Sequence record: PZ386978.1
Origin: a phage
Length of the DNA: 64,000 nt
Direction: 5' to 3' (one strand)
The translations under genes were made by a program, and so were the position numbers. A model generated the notes under the pieces. It made no database searches and was not told the origin of the DNA. It saw only the letters and a program-made list of their open reading frames with translations. This document shows, piece by piece, positions 3,748-47,298 of this stretch. Each line of letters starts with the position of its first letter. The stretch's first letter is position 1.

Positions 3748-4002
3748 TTAAAAGAATAAGTCAGATGCTTTTGGGTTGATTAAACTCATGCAGTTTTGAA
3801 GCATGGCTTCATTGTAACCCTCTTGGCAAACTGCGTAGAGTTTATCGAAAGTTTCTTTTGATACGGGGGAGACTGATAACTCTTGGCATACACTAAGATA
3901 CCATTCGTAATCTAAGCCTCTGCTCCAAGCGTCAGCGATTAAGGCTGTAGCTTTGTCTTTGCTTCTGATAACTTCATCAGACTTTTCAATTTTACTGTTC
4001 AC
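3748..4002 (-). CDS. hypothetical protein
   Basis: 84 aa ORF in co-directional compact block. Confidence 0.4.
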   Translation of the reverse strand: MNSKIEKSDEVIRSKDKATALIADAWSRGLDYEWYLSVCQELSVSPVSKETFDKLYAVCQEGYNEAMLQNCMSLINPKASDLFF

Positions 4003-17440: not shown

Positions 17441-19675
17441 ATGATTAAGACAATTAAAAAATCAAACGGTACAGTAGTAAGCTTTGACCCAGAAAGACTG
17501 AACAAGTGGGCATCATGGGCAGATAAGCGTGGAATTATCTGGTCAGAAGTCACTATGGAAGCCATGAAACGTGTCTATGAAGGATGCACTACAAAAGAGA
17601 TGCACCAAGCCATGATTGATGTTTGTGTTGATAAACAAACTCAAGAGTACTCAGACATGGCTGGACGGCTACTTTTGGGTATTATCTACAAAGAAGCCTT
17701 TGGAGGCTTTACTAAGGTTCCTACACTGATTACCTTCGTTAAAAATATGGAGAGAGCAGGACTTTGGGAGAAGATGGACTATTCACAGGAAGAGCTTGAA
17801 TACCTGCAAGGTTACATCGTACACTCAAAAGATATCTCTTACGGTTATGCAGTCTTGAAACAGTTCAGAGACAAGTATGGTATCCGTGATATTAAAACGG
17901 GAAGACTTTTTGAGTCACCACAATTTATGTTTATGGGTATGGCTATGAAAGCTTTTGAGAAGCAACCAAAGCACCGTAGACTGCAAGATGTTATCAAGCT
18001 GTACACTTACCTATCTGACCTGAAGATTAACGCTCCTACGCCTTATTTAAATGGTTTAAGAGCAACTAAATCAGGTTATGCGTCATGCTGTTTGATTAAG
18101 GCAAATGATACTGCTGAGTCTCTCGGTATTGCTGCAAAGGTTGCTTATGATATGACCACAAAGCAAGCTGGTATCGGTATGCTGATGGAGACACGCACTA
18201 TTGGTGATGGTATCCGTCAAAATACGATTGAGCACATGGGTAAACTGCCTTATTACAAGCTTGTACGTTCATCTGTAGAGGCAAACAAACAGAAGAGCCG
18301 TGGTGGTTCAGCTAATAACTTCTACACTGCTCTAGACCCGCAGATTGAAGATTTACTGCGTTTGAAGCACCCTACAACGGTTCCTTCTAAACGTATTAAT
18401 GAGATGGACTACTCATTCGGCACAAACGATTATTTCTGGCAGTGTGTTCAGTATGATACAGATTGGTTGCTATTCTCTTACAAAGATGCACCAAAACTCT
18501 ATGACATGTTCTACACAGCATCTGCTGATGAGTTTGCTATGGCAGTTGGTCACGCAGTACATTCAGGAGTTAAGCACAGACGAGTAAAGGCTCGTGAAAT
18601 TGCTAAGCTGTTTATTCAACAGCGTTATGCTACAGGTCGTGTGTATCCATTCTTCACAAATAATGCGAACACACATACACCATTTAAAGAGCCTTTGAAG
18701 ATGTCAAATCTTTGTATGGAAATTGTGTTGCCAGTGTATGGTTTTGAGAAAGAGACAGACCTTTACAGAGACGATGCTGTGAAAGAGGATGGTGAGGTGG
18801 CTCTTTGCTTCCTAGCTAGTTTGGTTGCAGGGAGAATTTCAGAAGATGAATACGCTGACGTTGCTTATTATGCTCTTGCAATGGTTGACTCCGTTATTGA
18901 CCTTATGGATTATCCGTATCCGTCGATGCGTAACCACGTTCAGAAGCGTCGTTCTGTTGGGATTGGCCTTACAAATGTGGCTCATTACCTTGCGAAGAAC
19001 TACGTGAACTACTCTTCACGAGCAGGTAAAACGAAACTTCATGAACTTGCAGAGATGCACTCTTACTACCTGCATGAAGCCTCTCTGAGACTTGCTAAAG
19101 AGCGTGGAGTTCCAGAGTACATGAAGTTCACTAAGTATCCTGAAGGGTGGGTTCCTCCAAAGACAGCTAACAAGAAGATTGATGAAAAGCATGATGCGAA
19201 ACTACGATATGATTGGGATGACTTAGCACAACGTATCAAAGAGAATGGTGGAATCCGAAACTCTGTATTAGAAGCTTACATGCCTAATGAGAGTTCTTCA
19301 CTAGCAACTAATACGACAAATGGCTTGTACCCAATTCGTGACTTTATTTTAACTAAAAAGTCTGCAACTGGTAACGTGCTGTTTATTGTTCCAGACTACG
19401 AAGAGTTGAAGTATGTCTATGAAATTGCTTGGGATATTGACACCTTTGATATGATTGACTGTTATGCAATTGTTCAAAAGTTCACTGGTCAAGCTATCTC
19501 TTCAGACTTCTATGTTGACTATTCAAAGTCTAAGAAGGTATCATTGGCTCAAGCTCTGAAGTACATGATTTATGCCAACTCGGTAGGTATGAAAACCATG
19601 TACTACCTTAACAGTCGCATTGGTGTAGGTAAATCTGCACTGCAAGATGCTTATTGCGAGGGTTGTGGTGTTTAG
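17441..19675 (+). CDS. nrdA: ribonucleoside-diphosphate reductase large subunit (class I)
   Basis: 744 aa; N-terminal ATP-cone-like region; catalytic-site motif NLCMEI; followed by nrdB. Confidence 0.9.
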   Translation: MIKTIKKSNGTVVSFDPERLNKWASWADKRGIIWSEVTMEAMKRVYEGCTTKEMHQAMIDVCVDKQTQEYSDMAGRLLLGIIYKEAFGGFTKVPTLITFVKNMERAGLWEKMDYSQEELEYLQGYIVHSKDISYGYAVLKQFRDKYGIRDIKTGRLFESPQFMFMGMAMKAFEKQPKHRRLQDVIKLYTYLSDLKINAPTPYLNGLRATKSGYASCCLIKANDTAESLGIAAKVAYDMTTKQAGIGMLMETRTIGDGIRQNTIEHMGKLPYYKLVRSSVEANKQKSRGGSANNFYTALDPQIEDLLRLKHPTTVPSKRINEMDYSFGTNDYFWQCVQYDTDWLLFSYKDAPKLYDMFYTASADEFAMAVGHAVHSGVKHRRVKAREIAKLFIQQRYATGRVYPFFTNNANTHTPFKEPLKMSNLCMEIVLPVYGFEKETDLYRDDAVKEDGEVALCFLASLVAGRISEDEYADVAYYALAMVDSVIDLMDYPYPSMRNHVQKRRSVGIGLTNVAHYLAKNYVNYSSRAGKTKLHELAEMHSYYLHEASLRLAKERGVPEYMKFTKYPEGWVPPKTANKKIDEKHDAKLRYDWDDLAQRIKENGGIRNSVLEAYMPNESSSLATNTTNGLYPIRDFILTKKSATGNVLFIVPDYEELKYVYEIAWDIDTFDMIDCYAIVQKFTGQAISSDFYVDYSKSKKVSLAQALKYMIYANSVGMKTMYYLNSRIGVGKSALQDAYCEGCGV

Positions 19676-34614: not shown

Positions 34615-34637
34615 GGCTGCTTCGGCGGCCTTTTTTA
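34615..34637 (+). terminator. intrinsic terminator
   Basis: GGCTGCTTCGGCGGCC followed by TTTTTTAT. Confidence 0.6.
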
Positions 34638-34697
34638 TTTGTATTTTGTGCAGAGTGCTGTATAATTGTTGTCACGATAAACTAAACAGGAGAACCA

Positions 34698-35246
34698 ATG
34701 AAGAAATTGATTCTAGGTTTGTGCTTAATGTTTACAGCACACTTATCTTATGCAGTTGACTGCCCAGAGCTATCAATTAGCCAAAAAGTAAACATGTTAA
34801 AAGCTTACCAGTATGGTGAGAATAACATGGGTAAAGGTTGGGGTATCACTCTAGCTGCTATAGCCTTACAAGAGTCAGAGTTAGGTCTGAATGTAGAGAA
34901 TAAAAAGACACATGATTATGGTATCTTCCAGAATCACTTGAAGACTGTTGTAAAGCGTAACAAAATCAGTCCTAATGTGGCTAAAAAGAAACTCTTAAAA
35001 GATTTTGACTATGCTGCAAAGGAAACACACAAAGAGCTTGAATTTTGGACTAAGGTACACGGTCAACCAAAGTCAAAGAAGACTTTACAAAAAGTTTTAG
35101 CATCATATAATGCTGGGTATTCGTACAGAATCCCTAAAGCTAAGAAATATTCTCAAAATGTCTATAACAATATGAAAGTCATCGCTCAATGTGAATTTGC
35201 AACAAACATTTCTAAGGTAAATCATGAAAAAATTAAGAAAGTCTGA
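34698..35246 (+). CDS. putative secreted lytic transglycosylase-like protein
   Basis: Signal peptide MKKLILGLCLMFTAHLSYA; ALQESELG...YGIFQ resembles the SLT-domain catalytic region. Confidence 0.45.
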   Translation: MKKLILGLCLMFTAHLSYAVDCPELSISQKVNMLKAYQYGENNMGKGWGITLAAIALQESELGLNVENKKTHDYGIFQNHLKTVVKRNKISPNVAKKKLLKDFDYAAKETHKELEFWTKVHGQPKSKKTLQKVLASYNAGYSYRIPKAKKYSQNVYNNMKVIAQCEFATNISKVNHEKIKKV

Positions 35247-37754: not shown

Positions 37755-37947
37755 CTTCTGCAAAGACTGTTCTATCGAGATGTTTGGACGTGATACAGGT
37801 GCCTTAAAAGGTCTCATCACTGAAGATGACTTTAAAGCTGGCTATGCAATGCCAGTAATCTGTGAAGGTTGTGGGTGCATCTGGGTAGACCACGAAGGGC
37901 AACGTGTAAAACCTTCAGAAGATAAAGAATCTTGGGAGAGATGTTAA
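37747..37947 (+). CDS. hypothetical small Cys-rich protein
   Basis: Start at MADFCKDC; CxxC...CEGCGC pattern suggests a zinc ribbon. Confidence 0.4.
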   Translation: MADFCKDCSIEMFGRDTGALKGLITEDDFKAGYAMPVICEGCGCIWVDHEGQRVKPSEDKESWERC

Positions 37948-38733
37948 ATGGGCATTGTAAAAATCATCAATGGTGATATCTTTGCAGCATTTGATAAAGG
38001 TAAGTTTGACGTCATTGGTCACGGTTGCAACTGTATGAATTTAATGGGTGCAGGTATCGCTGACAAGATTTCTAAACTTTACCCAAAAGCATATGAGACC
38101 GATACAGAAGTTTATCTATATGCAGGTGGTATAGGCCACAAACCCTGTGAAAATTTACTGGGTAATTTCTCTGTAGCACGTTTAAAACAAGGTCGCATAG
38201 CTAACCTTTACACTCAACTTAAGACTGGTAAAGATGCCAGATACAGTGCTTTAGAGTCATCTTTGAAACAGCTTAACAGATACTGTGAAGTCAACCAGTT
38301 GAAGAAGGTTGGTCTACCTATGATTGGTGCAGGTATCGGTGGGCTAGACCCTCAAGCCGTCACAGTTATCATTAATCAGGTGATGAAGAGTGTAGATGTG
38401 TATCTTTATGTCTACGAAGGAGAGATGTACCACAAGTTACGCTCAGGTTGGAAGAACTACTGTGAACCAGAATACTTTGCAGGTGTAGTAGTGTTCACTA
38501 ATGATGCAGTTACCCTCTTCAGACGAAGAAAAGGTAAGATACATCAAAGTAACCCTCCGGTTGAAAAGATGTCTCTAAGTAACGCTCTAGTTACCCACCT
38601 GTCGAAGAGCAGTCACAGGATTGCAGTAACATTTGGCAGTGATGCAGATGCTTACATCTATGCAAGAACTGATGAGGATATCGAGACGGTTTTCTCTTCA
38701 CCAGAGCTTACCTTCTTAGACGCAAAGAACTAA
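37948..38733 (+). CDS. macro-domain-like protein (ADP-ribose binding/processing)
   Basis: N-terminal NGDIFAAFDKGKFDVIGHGCNCMNLMGAGIADKI follows the macro-domain pattern GDI...D.IVNAAN...GGGV..AI. Confidence 0.5.
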   Translation: MGIVKIINGDIFAAFDKGKFDVIGHGCNCMNLMGAGIADKISKLYPKAYETDTEVYLYAGGIGHKPCENLLGNFSVARLKQGRIANLYTQLKTGKDARYSALESSLKQLNRYCEVNQLKKVGLPMIGAGIGGLDPQAVTVIINQVMKSVDVYLYVYEGEMYHKLRSGWKNYCEPEYFAGVVVFTNDAVTLFRRRKGKIHQSNPPVEKMSLSNALVTHLSKSSHRIAVTFGSDADAYIYARTDEDIETVFSSPELTFLDAKN

Positions 38734-38805
38734 GAAACTTCGTAGTATATTCACAATAGACTAAGCCTTTCTTATCTGGTAAATTTCTCAGGTAAGGAGG
38801 GCTTT

Positions 38806-38992
38806 TTCATTTCAGAATTGTGCAGGTAGAGTTCTGTAGAGAAATCTATAGAGAAAATTTTGAACTCCAAAGAGAAAATTCATTTTCAAACTGTGCAGGT
38901 AATCTCCAAAGAGCTTTTTCATTTTCAAAACGTGCAGACCCCGCTCAGGTCGGGCAAGAAAAATCATTTTAGAATTGTGCAGGTAGGTGGGT
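38806..38992 (+). repeat. four direct repeats, consensus TTTTCATTTTCARAAYTGTGCAGGTA (iteron-like)
   Basis: Copies near 38814, 38879, 38926 and 38963, spaced ~45-65 bp, in the 500 bp non-coding gap upstream of the small-gene array. Confidence 0.6.
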
Positions 38993-39162
38993 GTAGGTGG
39001 GGCTGTCGCCATTTCTCACAAGGCTACCACATCTGGAAATAAAAGTCAACAGAAAAATTTGTAGCGGATTGAAAAATAATTCTTGATTGTAGTTCTGTTT
39101 TGTGGTAGTCGCGCGCACCCGTTTCATTACAATCTTTGCAAAAAATATTTTTAAAATTCCTA

Positions 39163-39191
39163 TTGACTCTTTGAGTATGGTTATCTAATAT
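39163..39191 (+). promoter_or_regulatory. sigma70-like promoter for the small-gene array
   Basis: TTGACT at 39163-39168, 17 nt spacer, TAATAT at 39186-39191. Confidence 0.55.
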
Positions 39192-39241
39192 TTGCATCAG
39201 ACGGGCAATCAAGCCCACTTCCTAAACTGGAGAATCTAAAA

Positions 39242-39448
39242 ATGCTTTACAGTCGTGAATTGATGGTTACAACTAACGTTAACACAAAGGTAAAACGTTT
39301 TTACATGCAAATTTGTGGCGTATGGTCTAGAATATCAGAGGCTGACTATTGCAACTATGTAGAAACAGCTATAAACTCTAATTGCTACCTTACAAGAAAT
39401 ACAAGAAAGTACATAAGACAGACAGCAATTTACTACTACGATAAATAA
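39242..39448 (+). CDS. hypothetical small protein (array ORF1)
   Basis: 68 aa; preceded by conserved leader CCTAAACTGGAGAATCTAAAAATG. Confidence 0.5.
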   Translation: MLYSRELMVTTNVNTKVKRFYMQICGVWSRISEADYCNYVETAINSNCYLTRNTRKYIRQTAIYYYDK

Positions 39449-39538
39449 AAAGTACTTTACAGGGGGCTTATAAGGCTGTACAGTAAGCCCCAGATAAAGA
39501 GCTTTACCACATTAACCCTTAAACTAGGAGATTCTAAA

Positions 39539-39919
39539 ATGGCATATCGCGCACCTAAATTCATCAATAAAGACAACTTTCGCAACGCACTGGAGAAGTC
39601 ACTTGATGAGAATTTTAAAGGCAACGTTATTGTTGTTCACTCGTTTAATTTCAAGTATGATATCAACGGGAATAAAATCAACCATTACACGGCAACCATG
39701 ATAGATGGTACACTATCAAGTGAAAAAGCCATTTTGCATGCACTTGCTGGACGTGGTAAAAAACTGATAAAATGCGATAAGAGACGTTATCAGGGTGGCG
39801 CATATGGTTATGATGATACTGTTTATCATCTTGAAAATATGGGCTATCAAGTAGAAAAAGCTGGAGTATCACAAATCATCGGGAGTGACGGCTATGTGAC
39901 AATCTTCAAAATTAAATAA
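39539..39919 (+). CDS. hypothetical protein (array ORF2)
   Basis: 126 aa; conserved leader upstream. Confidence 0.5.
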   Translation: MAYRAPKFINKDNFRNALEKSLDENFKGNVIVVHSFNFKYDINGNKINHYTATMIDGTLSSEKAILHALAGRGKKLIKCDKRRYQGGAYGYDDTVYHLENMGYQVEKAGVSQIIGSDGYVTIFKIK

Positions 39920-40007
39920 AAAGTACTTTACAGGGGGCTTATAGTTCGATAAAGTAAGCCCCAGATAAAGAGCTTTACCACTAAATCCTAAATTGGAGAT
40001 TCAAAAA

Positions 40008-40298
40008 ATGGCTATTATCAAAAACGTTGTAATTCCTGCAAAAACTCGTGATGACGCTCGCATCATGGCGAAAAAGTTAGGCGGGAAAGTGGTTGACAAT
40101 GGAAAACAATCTGCTGTAAGATGGGGTGTGAAGGCTGATAAACAGTTGAAGTTAAAAAATTCACCAATAAACCTTTTTACATGTGTAAACACTATCGGGA
40201 AGACAAATGTATACACGAAAAAGGCATATATTAGACGCGTAGCCTTAACATCTCCCATTCGTACAATGAGAAGCTATGCAAAGCTAAAAATTAACTGA
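40008..40298 (+). CDS. hypothetical protein (array ORF3)
   Basis: Start at MAIIKNVV right after conserved leader GGAGATTCAAAAA; track ORF begins 15 nt upstream inside the leader. Confidence 0.5.
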   Translation: MAIIKNVVIPAKTRDDARIMAKKLGGKVVDNGKQSAVRWGVKADKQLKLKNSPINLFTCVNTIGKTNVYTKKAYIRRVALTSPIRTMRSYAKLKIN

Positions 40299-40385
40299 TA
40301 AAGTACTTTACAGGGGGCTTAAAAGTTGATATCTTAAGCCCCAGATAAAGAGCTTTACCACTCAATCCTAAACTGGAGATTCAAA

Positions 40386-41702: not shown

Positions 41703-41975
41703 ATGTATACTACTAACAATGGTCGTACTTTAAATGTAACTTTACGTCACTATGTAGACGGTGTAATGCACTTTGAGGATTTACGGGCTGAACAACATAT
41801 CTTAGATTGGCAAGTAGCAGGACTCCAAAAAACTGCTACGGGATATGGTAAAAAGATTCCAACCAGTTGGAAAGTACACTACGAAGGACGTTTGCGCAGA
41901 ATTTATCAAGATGTATGTAGTAATAGCGCAGCAAGTTACATCATAGTAAAAGGTAAAAAACTGCACTTAGTATAA
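41703..41975 (+). CDS. hypothetical protein (array ORF7)
   Basis: 90 aa; type 2 leader upstream. Confidence 0.5.
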   Translation: MYTTNNGRTLNVTLRHYVDGVMHFEDLRAEQHILDWQVAGLQKTATGYGKKIPTSWKVHYEGRLRRIYQDVCSNSAASYIIVKGKKLHLV

Positions 41976-42060
41976 AGTGCTTTACATGGGGCTTAAAAGT
42001 CTGTAAAGTAAGCCCCAGATAAAGAGCTTTACCACTAAATCCTAAATTGGAGATTCTAAA

Positions 42061-42568: not shown

Positions 42569-42772
42569 ATGGCTATTATTAATGGCTTAACCATTGAAAC
42601 TACACACATCAAAGATATTAAAGTTGGTGATATAGTCCTTTCCCACGGCGTAGAAAAAACTGTCACTGCAAAGGATATCAAAGAGGATTCTTTCATGGGT
42701 AGGACTCTCTTCGGTGATTCTTATTGCTTAGGTTATCTTGCAGTTTTAAAAGTTGTCAAAAATAACAAATAA
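42569..42772 (+). CDS. hypothetical protein (array ORF9)
   Basis: 67 aa; type 2 leader upstream. Confidence 0.5.
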   Translation: MAIINGLTIETTHIKDIKVGDIVLSHGVEKTVTAKDIKEDSFMGRTLFGDSYCLGYLAVLKVVKNNK

Positions 42773-42858
42773 AGTACTTTACAAGGGGCTTATAGTTCGA
42801 TAAAGTAAGCCCCAGATAAAGAGCTTTACCACTAAATCCTTAAACTAGGAGATTCAAA

Positions 42859-43425
42859 ATGAAATGCTATCACGGCACTACTCTGAAAAACTTTGTAAAC
42901 CTGCTTAAAGGTGGCGACAAGCCGGAAGGTATCTGGAACTGCTCTTACATGGATGATTGTTTTTACGTTTACCCGATGGATAAGATTATCAAGACGGAAT
43001 GCCTGGAAGATGAAGAAGCCTCTTACATCCGTGAACGCTGCATTCAAAACGCTTTAGAGTCGGGGCTTATTACGGCAGCTTTCCAAATGGAAACGCAGGA
43101 AGTGATTGTAATTGAGATGGATATCCCAGAGGAAGAACTTGAGGACGATTATTCTTGTGACAACATGAGCGAAATCGCCAGCTTTACCGGTTACTTTGAT
43201 AAAGATTGGATTATTGGTATTCACTCAACGAAATTTAGTGCAATGTATGCGCCATTCTTTGTACCTGATACAACTAACCTAAATTTGGGATATATTGACG
43301 ATGATTTGTTGAGTATTGCAAAAATTGTACAGAATAGCGGGGATACTTCTTCTTTGTTTTGTGACCTGCTGGATAAAATTACCGAGAATCTCACAGAGCG
43401 CAATCTAAGCGACTTTTTAGACTAA
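42859..43425 (+). CDS. hypothetical acidic protein (array ORF10)
   Basis: 188 aa; type 1 leader upstream. Confidence 0.5.
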   Translation: MKCYHGTTLKNFVNLLKGGDKPEGIWNCSYMDDCFYVYPMDKIIKTECLEDEEASYIRERCIQNALESGLITAAFQMETQEVIVIEMDIPEEELEDDYSCDNMSEIASFTGYFDKDWIIGIHSTKFSAMYAPFFVPDTTNLNLGYIDDDLLSIAKIVQNSGDTSSLFCDLLDKITENLTERNLSDFLD

Positions 43426-45598: not shown

Positions 45599-45620
45599 AG
45601 CCCCTTAAATGGGGCTTTTT
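45599..45620 (+). terminator. intrinsic terminator closing the plus-strand block
   Basis: GCCCCTTAAATGGGGC followed by TTTTTT. Confidence 0.6.
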
Positions 45621-47298
45621 TACGTCTATCAAATTCCTTTCCAGAATCTTAAAACCCACCTAACAAGTCAGAACTTTACCAGACCTTAAAAAGCAATAAC
45701 TCTATAGTCTACTCTATAGCCTTTTATCAAATCAACTGATTGGCATTGTTACCAATCCCTTAAATATAAGCCCATAACCCGAAAGGGAAGGGCAACCACT
45801 AAAATGCTCTATAAAGCTCTATAACAGCCTTATCAACCTAACTTAAGCAATCATATTAACCCACTCTAAAAAGCCCTTCCTAGAGCTTCCCAGAGCCTTA
45901 AAAGAATCTTATAAGGGGTGTAAGCTTTATCATCTCGTTAGTATTCTTGTGAACTACTATAAAGGGCTATGAGATAGGACTCTATGAGGGTAATTCATTA
46001 CCTGAATCACTATCGAATCCTATTGTTATTGTCTTAAAAGTATGTTATAGGGGCTTAAAAGTAGCTTAAAAGTTACGTAAAAGAGGCTATAAAGTTACGT
46101 AAATGCTAGCCCCCTTAACATTTTCTTAACAATTTCTTAACAAACCCTACATAGTTATGCTTGTTAGAGACTTGTTAGCCCCTTGTTAAATCTCTGTTAA
46201 GACCACGTAAAAGCCTTGTAAGAGTCTTTGGCATAGCCTTAAAAGCCACTGTAAAGCCCTATAAAGAGCTATCCATACAGTTGAGGGGTAAATACTAGGA
46301 AGATGCTTAAAAGAGCCTATAAAGAGTTATAGAGAGCTTTTAAGAGGTATGTTTAAGGAATCACTAAGAAAGGAAAGGGAACGATAAGAAAAGAGTAGTG
46401 ACCATGTTAATAGCTTGTTAAAAAGATTAAGCACTTGTTAGGAACTTGTTAATTATCTTAACAAAATAACTCTTTAAAATTAACTTGTTAGCTCTTGTTA
46501 GCCATCTGTTAAGCATCTGTAAAGACTATTCAGCACTTGTTAAGAATCTGTTACAACCTTGTTAGTTCTGTTAAGAAACTGTTAAGACCTTTGAAGAGAT
46601 GTTAAGAAGATGTTATGACTGTTAAGAGATTGTTAAGGATATTTTAAAATTTTGCAAAGGGGGTGTTAAGGGGCTGTTAAGGGCTACCAAGCAGATATAC
46701 ATCCTAATCAGATATTTTCAGTTCCTTCAAAGACCCTAAAAAATGACTTGATAGTCCTATTTTATAAAAATTTTAAAATTCTGGATAATTACCTAGACAG
46801 TCTTTTAAAATACAGGCAGAAACAGGCTTATAAGATACCTTGTTAGTACCGTGTTAGACCTTGTGAGATAAGGTCTGTAAAGATATTCCTGTTAAGTTTG
46901 TTAAAACAGTCTATATAGAGGCTTAGTAATACCTAGTGAACACCTATAGAGGGTATCATAGCTGACATAGAGATTAAGAGGTGTATAGGGGCTTCTAAGA
47001 GTGTGTAGAGAGATGGTTAAGGTGATTGTATAGGCTGTTAAGAAGGCTTGTTAGAAGAGTGTTTAGAAGGTTTGTTAGAGGGCTAGTTAGAAGGGTTATA
47101 CAGAGGGGCTATTAAGACCACTAGATAATTACTAAGATACTATATAGTACTATATAACTATATAGAGAGTAAGATTAAGAAGGTTGTTAAGAAGGGTAGA
47201 TATTTTATTCACATATGATGGTGACCCAGAGGTTGGGACAACCGATAAAATTTTATAAAAATTAAAAAGCCCCCAATTAAGGAGGCTCTTAAGATATT
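45621..47298. repeat. 1.7 kb ORF-free region densely populated with short YTGTTAR / CTATAAAG-type repeats
   Basis: No ORF of 60 aa or more on either strand in the supplied track; ~18 YTGTTAR copies at 46380-46680, more at 46130-46215 (both orientations) and 47030-47200; lies between convergent gene blocks. Confidence 0.65.

Follow-up and report, generated by a model that had tools for sequence, protein, structure and literature searches.

Clusters of short repeated sites in non-coding DNA are familiar from several described systems. Iteron origins (lambda ori, with its four O-protein sites and A-tracts; P1 oriR/incA; F, R6K, and pSC101) carry asymmetric direct repeats at a single locus, set contiguously at about 22 bp. 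The lambda operators OL and OR, and the phi29 p4 sites between the A2c/A2b and A3 promoters, group three or four sites in a non-coding region at the boundary between temporal classes. Middle promoters of T4 combine a MotA box at −30 with a sigma-70 −10 element. In T5, the first-step-transfer segment amounts to 7.9% of the genome, and ends at conserved non-coding repeats with DnaA boxes (10.1101/866236). Described here is an array of four direct repeats with likenesses to each of these systems, located in 64,000 nucleotides of phage DNA (record PZ386978.1; "the window" denotes this whole stretch). The window is from a Felixounavirus (Felix O1-like) genome: positions 37900–39600 are 95–97% identical to Salmonella and Escherichia Felixounavirus (DaR-2019b, adrianh, and Barry). 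The repeats very probably constitute a real array of putative binding sites, selected at the level of DNA.

The repeat array and its conservation

The original prediction described four direct repeats within a gap of about 500 bp that follows a macro-domain gene. Both features are borne out, with all four copies on the same strand. The non-coding gap (38734–39241) measures 508 bp, with the macro-domain gene on its left and the next gene, starting at 39242, on its right. The four copies and the left-hand gene are as follows.

38801–38829, plus strand: repeat copy 1, GCTTTTTCATTTCAGAATTGTGCAGGTAG; 38.4 bits; an exact match to the degenerate core, kept in all genera
38874–38902, plus strand: repeat copy 2, GAAAATTCATTTTCAAACTGTGCAGGTAA; 36.9 bits; the copy absent from natural three-copy variants
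38913–38941, plus strand: repeat copy 3, GCTTTTTCATTTTCAAAACGTGCAGACCC; 34.6 bits
38958–38986, plus strand: repeat copy 4, GAAAAATCATTTTAGAATTGTGCAGGTAG; 34.8 bits
37948–38733: macro-domain gene (Pfam Macro)

Each unit spans about 29 nt and has two parts: a G or C; five Ts or five As; TCATTT; seven residues, mostly A or T; GTGCA; and, in most copies, GGTA. The TCATTT and GTGCA elements are nearly invariant (information content 1.4–2.1 bits per position), and the positions that follow GTGCA are the least conserved part of the unit. Ahead of the core, copies 1 and 3 have T5, and copies 2 and 4 have a run of A (A4 and A5, respectively). A swap between A5 and T5 keeps DNA shape equivalent, but affects RNA pairing.

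Chance does not account for these matches. The degenerate core TCATTTYMRAAHYGTGCAG occurs without mismatch at 38807, 38880, 38919, and 38964; with up to three mismatches, the 64-kb window holds five matches, compared with 0.73 expected from shuffles. With a position weight matrix derived from 26 distinct copies in relatives, the four copies score 34.6–38.4 bits, whereas the maximum in 20 shuffled genomes is 13.5 bits. (Another matrix match, at 17450 on the minus strand, was set aside; its 12.5 bits are at chance level.) Two details of the original prediction need correction. The start-to-start spacing, given there as roughly 45–65 bp, is actually 73, 39, and 45 bp. The consensus it wrote was too strict, recovering only copy 1 when up to three mismatches are allowed, because copy 1 has TCATTTC and copy 3 ends GTGCAGACC. 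Three further elements, described below, are absent from it: a degenerate fifth copy (39071–39095), a 12-bp tandem (38833–38856), and a solitary copy (34629–34657).

A motif search of related genomes, which the original prediction had recommended, found the array at the syntenic position across the subfamily. In Felixounavirus, Suspvirus, Mooglevirus, and Kolesnikvirus, it occupies the same place, flanked upstream by the macro-gene terminator and downstream by the promoter that opens a block of small genes. The copy numbers and spacings are these.

Felixounavirus and Suspvirus: four copies, spacing 73/39/45 bp
Mooglevirus: four copies, spacing 75/41/45 bp
Kolesnikvirus (Erwinia phages; GTGCATAG variant): four copies, spacing 37/37/39 bp
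Minority lineage: three copies, spacing 75/45 bp

Copy 2 is the one missing from phiWec174 and from five further sequences (L018, L078, L170, L221, and L240). More remote examples were located through full-length but distant homologues of the macro protein (35–36% identity) in the metagenomic relatives L076 and L077. L077, a phage of 47% GC whose macro protein is 36% identical, has four copies, GCTTTTTCATTCTGAAACTGTGCAGG, at spacings of 91/35/45, placed after one extra gene. L076 (macro protein 35% identical) has six copies at spacings of 37/41/47/47/47, about 2 kb further downstream. No array was found with L074 and L075, which are more distant still and homologous in the macro protein only.

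The architecture of a long, a short, and a 45-bp spacing is thus conserved. Spacers and copy number, as the alignments indicate, turn over: copy 4 of the Felix-type array, with its flank, is nearly identical to copy 3 of the Erwinia phage phiEa21-4. Only 14.3 of the 64 kb in the window can be aligned to phiEa21-4 at the DNA level, and the array is among the aligned pieces. Majority identity by position, computed over 37 distinct sequences, is 0.94 for the TCATTT and GTGCA cores; 0.84–0.88 for whole 29-nt copies; 0.69 for spacer 3, the most variable spacer; and 0.72 and 0.56 for codon third positions in the two flanking genes. The contrast between the cores and these third positions indicates that the cores are under purifying selection.

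The array also is confined to one locus per genome. A matrix scan of the Bas63 genome (87.1 kb) found the four-copy cluster, one weaker solitary site behind rIIB, and nothing else; the same scan of phiEa21-4 (84.6 kb) found the four-copy cluster alone. One cluster per genome excludes a general class of promoters. The suggestion in the original prediction that the repeats are phage-specific promoters accordingly is not supported: besides the lack of recurrence elsewhere in these two genomes (one cluster and at most one solitary site in each), the array copies lack a conserved −10 element and are not directly followed by a gene.

Nor does the array look borrowed from a host or a plasmid. Scans of IMG/VR and metagenomes found true arrays only on Ounavirinae-like contigs. 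BLAST of the array against 5,426 Escherichia coli genomes gave no match, and plasmids in PLSDB gave only chance AT-rich matches. A tandem pattern run against 185,579 species genomes gave 44 matches, none from Enterobacterales among the matches listed. Several of these contigs have repeated, evenly spaced matches that resemble unrelated tandem repeats (the loci were not inspected). An unrelated 10-kb viral contig (L020; IMG/VR 3300018080_002802) has two TCATTTTAACATAGTGCA copies at 3909–3990, spaced by 50 bp and identically flanked; it is a different tandem repeat, whose agreement with the search pattern is fortuitous.

The solitary copy and a putative operator cluster

What the array may do is suggested by its surroundings and by a solitary site elsewhere in the window.

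34629–34657, plus strand: solitary copy CCTTTTTTATTTGTATTTTGTGCAGAGTG, 16.9 bits; just past the rIIB terminator, 4.2 kb upstream of the array
38763–38804, plus strand: intrinsic terminator (17-pair stem, 6 G-C pairs, T-tail) that ends a long rightward unit, rII through the macro gene
39163–39191, plus strand: sigma-70-type promoter TTGACT-17-TAATAT, which drives the right-terminal small early genes, the first at 39242
38833–38856, plus strand: 12-bp tandem, TCTGTAGAGAAA then TCTATAGAGAAA, within the long spacer that separates copies 1 and 2

The solitary copy coincides with a predicted sigma-70 promoter: −35 TTGTAT (34639–34644), a 16-nt spacer, −10 TATAAT (34661–34666), and a gene start at 34698. 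The operon behind it encodes an SLT-like protein, a polynucleotide kinase, and a g88 homologue. The copy spans approximately −40 to −18, and thereby covers the −35 element and the spacer. Within the window, it is the only GTGCA-N7–9-TAnnWT with such an upstream context. Homologous sites are present in L141, an 80.9-kb metagenomic relative (25.8 bits), and in the Mooglevirus Mordin, where a clear copy was recognized by eye; in both, the −35 hexamer (TTGCAA, TTGAAA) lies inside the N7 segment. The arrangement of GTGCA, eight nucleotides, and TATAAT is identical in all three lineages. A promoter spacer normally is free to vary, so the conserved GTGCAG within it points to a bound factor, and the fixed geometry of the overlap ties the motif to transcription control.

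This arrangement recalls the T4 middle promoters, in that a solitary motif stands at a fixed distance from a perfect TATAAT. The differences are that only one such promoter is present per genome; that it has a usable −35 element (TTGTAT, TTGCAA, or TTGAAA); that no MotA or AsiA homologues are noted in the annotations; and that the four array copies have no −10 element.

Copy 1 together with the 12-bp tandem aligns with the solitary promoter (TGTAGAGAA versus TGTATAATT, with four extra bases). In this alignment, the tandem falls on the −10 region and looks like a decayed −10 element. The array therefore may have arisen by duplication of a terminator-promoter module, of which only the factor-binding half was kept. 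The tandem is present in Suspvirus, Mooglevirus, and L077, and absent from the Erwinia phages, where the long spacer is missing. A search of the window with two mismatches allowed found 23 matches to it, versus 11.3 expected, and it is similar to short repeats of the terminal region, for example TCTGTTAAGAAA at 46567 and TCTGTAAAGATA at 46874.

The array itself borders, on the inner side, a block of small early genes that are read toward the right end of the genome; the layout in phiEa21-4 is the same. The T-run of the 38763–38804 terminator extends into repeat copy 1; the Barry record has an annotated terminator at the matching place. The promoter at 39163, also named in the original prediction, was confirmed by a promoter scan, and its TTGAC and the TA.TATTT of its −10 region are invariant among nine sequences from four genera. 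Felix O1 open reading frames (ORFs) that match the right-terminal block (ORFs 16 and 20–22) show maximal expression at 5 min (PMC3185647).

These observations suggest, tentatively, a model in which the array is an operator cluster for one putative regulator, the same that acts at the promoter-overlapping copy. The four repeats would be double-stranded DNA sites for a single sequence-specific protein that reads an asymmetric two-part site, TCATTT-N7-GTGCA, beside an A- or T-tract. Bound to the solitary copy behind rIIB, the protein would block, or possibly assist, RNA polymerase. The array, which would be a cluster of operators for the same factor, occupies a quiet stretch: the middle-gene unit terminates on one side of it, and on the other is the first strong promoter of the right-terminal early block. 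There, it could hold a multi-protein complex at the boundary, insulating or timing the early block; alternatively, it could serve as a high-affinity reservoir or nucleation site for the regulator. Protein binding, the use of one protein for all copies, and the repressing or insulating effect are all inferred.

Similarities to the lambda and phi29 operators are evident. Here, too, one site lies over the −35 element and spacer of a host-type promoter, and the natural three-copy variants show the redundancy expected of operators. Insertion data also bear on this point. In the PhageMaP study of Bas63, barcode insertions in bas63_0096 scored +0.65, +0.62, and +0.24 on S17, and +0.93, +0.83, and +0.65 on MG1655 (10.1101/2024.10.10.617714, supplement 3). 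This annotated ORF (64142–64297, minus strand) has one end inside copy 1 and the other at the start of copy 4; the Bas63 copies occupy 64131–64316. Its scores match those of the neutral neighbour g95, whereas essential replication genes scored much lower (DNA polymerase, for example, −1.3 on S17 and −2.5 on MG1655), and the authors describe the region from about 46 to 66 kb of Bas63 as uniformly non-essential (10.1101/2024.10.10.617714). Neutral insertions and three-copy variants together make an essential, unique cis element unlikely.

Several observations weigh against the operator model. Unlike the lambda and phi29 sites, the clustered copies overlap no detected promoter: they lie 180–360 bp upstream of the nearest one, which is far for classical operators, and that promoter, at 39163, contains no full copy of the motif. 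Asymmetric direct repeats without dyad symmetry are more like iterons than like dimer-bound operators. The solitary copy is absent from the Erwinia phages, including phiEa21-4, although the array is kept. Finally, the solitary copy scores only 16.9 bits in the window, less than the 21.6 bits attained in one shuffle of the phiEa21-4 genome; what makes it significant is therefore its conservation across lineages, not its score. The operator array put forward in the original prediction nevertheless gains support from the solitary copy on a sigma-70 promoter.

What protein might bind? The motif is nearly constant, in L077 as well, while proteins diverge to about 35% identity, which suggests a very conserved reader: a core phage protein or a host factor. 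No reader was identified among the candidates considered. The Cro/C1 helix-turn-helix protein g35 of Bas63 (L044 26324–26623, minus strand), which scores as essential, was dropped because it is not conserved: tblastn found no match in the window or in phiEa21-4, so g35 is an accessory regulator of some Felixounaviruses only. The carboxyl-terminal domain of the macro protein, with a model at pLDDT 84 (predicted local distance difference test), has no fold match, including among DNA-binding folds. The neighbouring small proteins offer no informative domain, and no Pfam or PHROG function. Formal scans with the DnaA and IHF consensus sequences showed that neither fits all copies. To our knowledge, the same is true of the CRP, OmpR, sigma-54, sigma-E, RfaH ops, Mu transposase, and phi29 p4 consensus sequences.

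Alternative readings

The possibility, somewhat doubtful, should be kept in mind that the array is a once-per-genome cis element that organizes the Ounavirinae chromosome, whether as the primary origin or as a T5-like checkpoint that delimits a pre-early segment of 8.8%. The highly conserved factor that would read it would explain why the motif is constant despite 35% protein identity.

Taken by itself, the first of these options, a replication origin or origin-control locus with the repeats as initiator iterons, is rather unlikely, but a live rival of the operator model. Three further features bear on it and on the readings below.

39036–39095, plus strand: conserved AT-rich block, majority identity 0.82; alignment columns ~325–375 are nearly invariant among enteric genera
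39071–39095, plus strand: degenerate fifth copy, GAAAAATAATTCTTGATTGTAGTTC, without GTGCA, inside the AT-rich block
38987–39035: GC-rich mosaic segment, G-rich in the window; the least conserved part of the gap, majority identity 0.64

The unwinding region would be the AT-rich block, or the AT-rich stretch that precedes the promoter, and the solitary copy would be the autoregulatory operator of the initiator, as in iteron plasmids and P1. Several features favour this reading. As in iteron arrays, four or five asymmetric repeats of about 29 nt (iteron arrays have repeats of about 20–30 bp) are found in direct orientation at one locus, with A-tracts beside the copies; the degenerate copy is within the conserved AT-rich block; copy number stays at 3–6 among relatives despite turnover; the site is transcriptionally quiet and adjoins a strong promoter; and an extra, iteron-like copy over a promoter is typical of Rep autoregulation. 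Other features argue against it. Spacings of 35–91 bp are neither contiguous nor helically phased. The gaps in enteric phages have no excess of DnaA boxes, no IHF consensus, and no GATC; the GTGCATA(G/A) variant of the Erwinia phages and L076 is a one-mismatch DnaA box, but the enteric-phage copies have three mismatches. Neither Pfam and PHROG assignments nor the fold search with the macro carboxyl-terminal domain revealed an initiator-like gene beside the array, and nothing similar is found among the plasmids of PLSDB. Cumulative GC skew is lowest at about 8 kb, in the divergent region next to the DNA polymerase gene, and highest at the terminal repeat; there is no shift at 38.8 kb, with the caveat that skew follows the direction of transcription in this genome. 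The replication genes are T7-like by annotation, and we know of no use of iterons in replication of that type.

Natural three-copy variants and the neutrality of the Bas63 insertions on both S17 and MG1655 also speak against an origin. In T4 and T7, however, origins are individually dispensable, so tolerance of insertions is not decisive, and a redundant or dispensable origin would be compatible with it. No report that maps the start of replication in Felix O1-like phages was found in the literature. The origin named in the original prediction is weakened, though not disproved, by the insertion data, the copy-number variants, the skew, the lack of host-factor sites in the enteric-phage gaps, and the gene content next to the array.

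Third, the copies could be weak or vestigial tandem promoters of the host type that dock RNA polymerase, which seems improbable. Each copy would represent the upstream two-thirds of a sigma-70 promoter (the A/T tract; a −35-like TTTTCA or TTYAGA; and the spacer), and the array would either fire weakly itself or, upstream of the strong early promoter, serve to recruit or trap host polymerase. The solitary copy does belong to a real-looking promoter, and the upstream half of the promoter at 39163 resembles the 5′ half of the motif. Moreover, if TTTTCA is taken as the −35 element with a 17-nt spacer, the bases after GTGCAGG are TAGAGT (copy 1 of the window), TATTAT (Mordin), and TATAGT (Henu11). 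Against this reading, no sigma-70 contact is known for GTGCA, the block with the highest conservation; the −10-like positions are the least conserved (0.1–0.5 bit); and a −10-like hexamer is missing from copies 3 and 4. The promoter scan places no promoter in the array, no gene comes after the copies, and none of the other promoters of the genome contains the motif.

Fourth, and still less probable, is a boundary or DNA-entry checkpoint of the T5 type, in which a membrane- or virion-associated protein would hold the DNA at the array, marking the inner edge of the right-terminal segment. In the phage Pr103Blw, PhageTerm analysis identified a direct terminal repeat of 581 bp (PMC8303462). This repeat, annotated at both ends of the Pr103Blw record, maps by homology to 46109–46690 in the window, which sets the distance between the array and the right physical end at 7.7–7.9 kb, or about 8.8% of a genome of 88.4 kb. 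(The same distance rules out the array as a genome end or packaging site of the cosB or pac type.) The order of elements (end, outward small early genes, strong promoter, and non-coding repeats) mirrors that in T5. Gene orientation in the terminal block of T5 likewise matches this outward-reading layout. As at the T5 injection stop, conserved non-coding repeats adjoin a terminal block of small early genes on its inner side, some 8–9% from the end; they are conserved better than neighbouring ORFs; and DnaA-box-like sequences are present in some lineages, namely the one-mismatch copies of the Erwinia phages and L076. Enteric-phage copies remain poor DnaA boxes. The T5 region, unlike the array, measures 1.2 kb, abounds in inverted repeats and palindromes, and is part of a 10-kb terminal repeat; the array comprises about 190 bp of simple direct repeats, without palindromes or inverted repeats, 7 kb away from a terminal repeat of 0.58 kb. 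In addition, neither two-step injection nor right-end-first entry is known for Felix O1-like phages, the left-terminal block has no such array, and Bas63 tolerates the insertions.

Finally, an element that acts as RNA or protein, such as a small RNA or sponge, or the small ORFs annotated there, has scarcely any chance of being correct and is largely refuted. In its favour, hypothetical ORFs cover the array in several records (bas63_0096 and 0097, Mordin_126, and FO1a gp14), and reverse-transcription polymerase chain reaction detected RNA over Felix O1 "ORF 14", maximal at 25 min. Against it, these ORFs disagree in strand and place between records; no frame stays free of stops through the array in every taxon; the frames of the copies are 2,0,0,0 in the window, 0,0,2,2 in Mooglevirus, and 2,0,1,1 in the Erwinia phages (with stops in all six frames); single sequences fold unremarkably except at the terminator (z −1.7 and −0.6), and consensus folds, computed over 200 nt, reach only −5.0 and −3.5 kcal/mol; an Rfam search of the array region found no family above threshold; the 5,426 E. 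coli genomes hold no match or complement; and the A5/T5 swap would not be neutral for RNA pairing.

Flanking DNA and significance for Felix O1-like phages

The original prediction also noted a GC-rich and then an AT-rich segment after the array, which correspond to 38987–39035 and 39036–39095. The former is G-rich in the window and in phiWec174; FO1a, Suspvirus, Mooglevirus, and the Erwinia phages have a C-rich polypyrimidine tract instead. To judge from the alignment, the window version looks like an inversion, with CAGCCCCACC shared on the other strand. Four metagenome contigs stop about 300–415 bp past the macro gene, within or just beyond this segment, and the GenBank record LMP34 stops inside it, at approximately window position 39019. 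Probably, these ends are assembly breaks at a variable, homopolymer-rich spot.

Farther to the right, modules consisting of a terminator, promoter, and leader recur between the small early genes (39443–39521, 39914–39989, 40289–40369, 41971–42043, and 42742–42893). They are 73–85% identical to their phiEa21-4 counterparts, and are conserved better than the genes between them. The terminal repeat lies in a convergent non-coding gap of about 1.7 kb (45620–47270) that also holds dozens of 8–12-bp repeats (CTTGTTAG, CTGTTAAGA, CTTAAAAG, and CTATAAAG), often at intervals of 11–12 or 31 bp. Part of this gap (46538–46701) aligns with phiEa21-4 at the DNA level, so it probably carries packaging or end signals.

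Felix O1 is a classic Salmonella typing phage, and relatives such as Bas63 and wV8 are coming into use as models and in therapy. The genome paper on Felix O1 left unexplained both temporal regulation and the passage of polymerase past many terminators (PMC3185647). Literature on iterons, origins, and repeats in Felix O1 and Felixounavirus yielded no description of the array. In many GenBank records, it is hidden under spurious hypothetical ORFs, and ORF calling across it should stop. Together, the array and the solitary promoter copy are the best-conserved non-coding signal of the early region, and the array provides a concrete handle on early-to-middle switching, origin function, or DNA entry in these phages.

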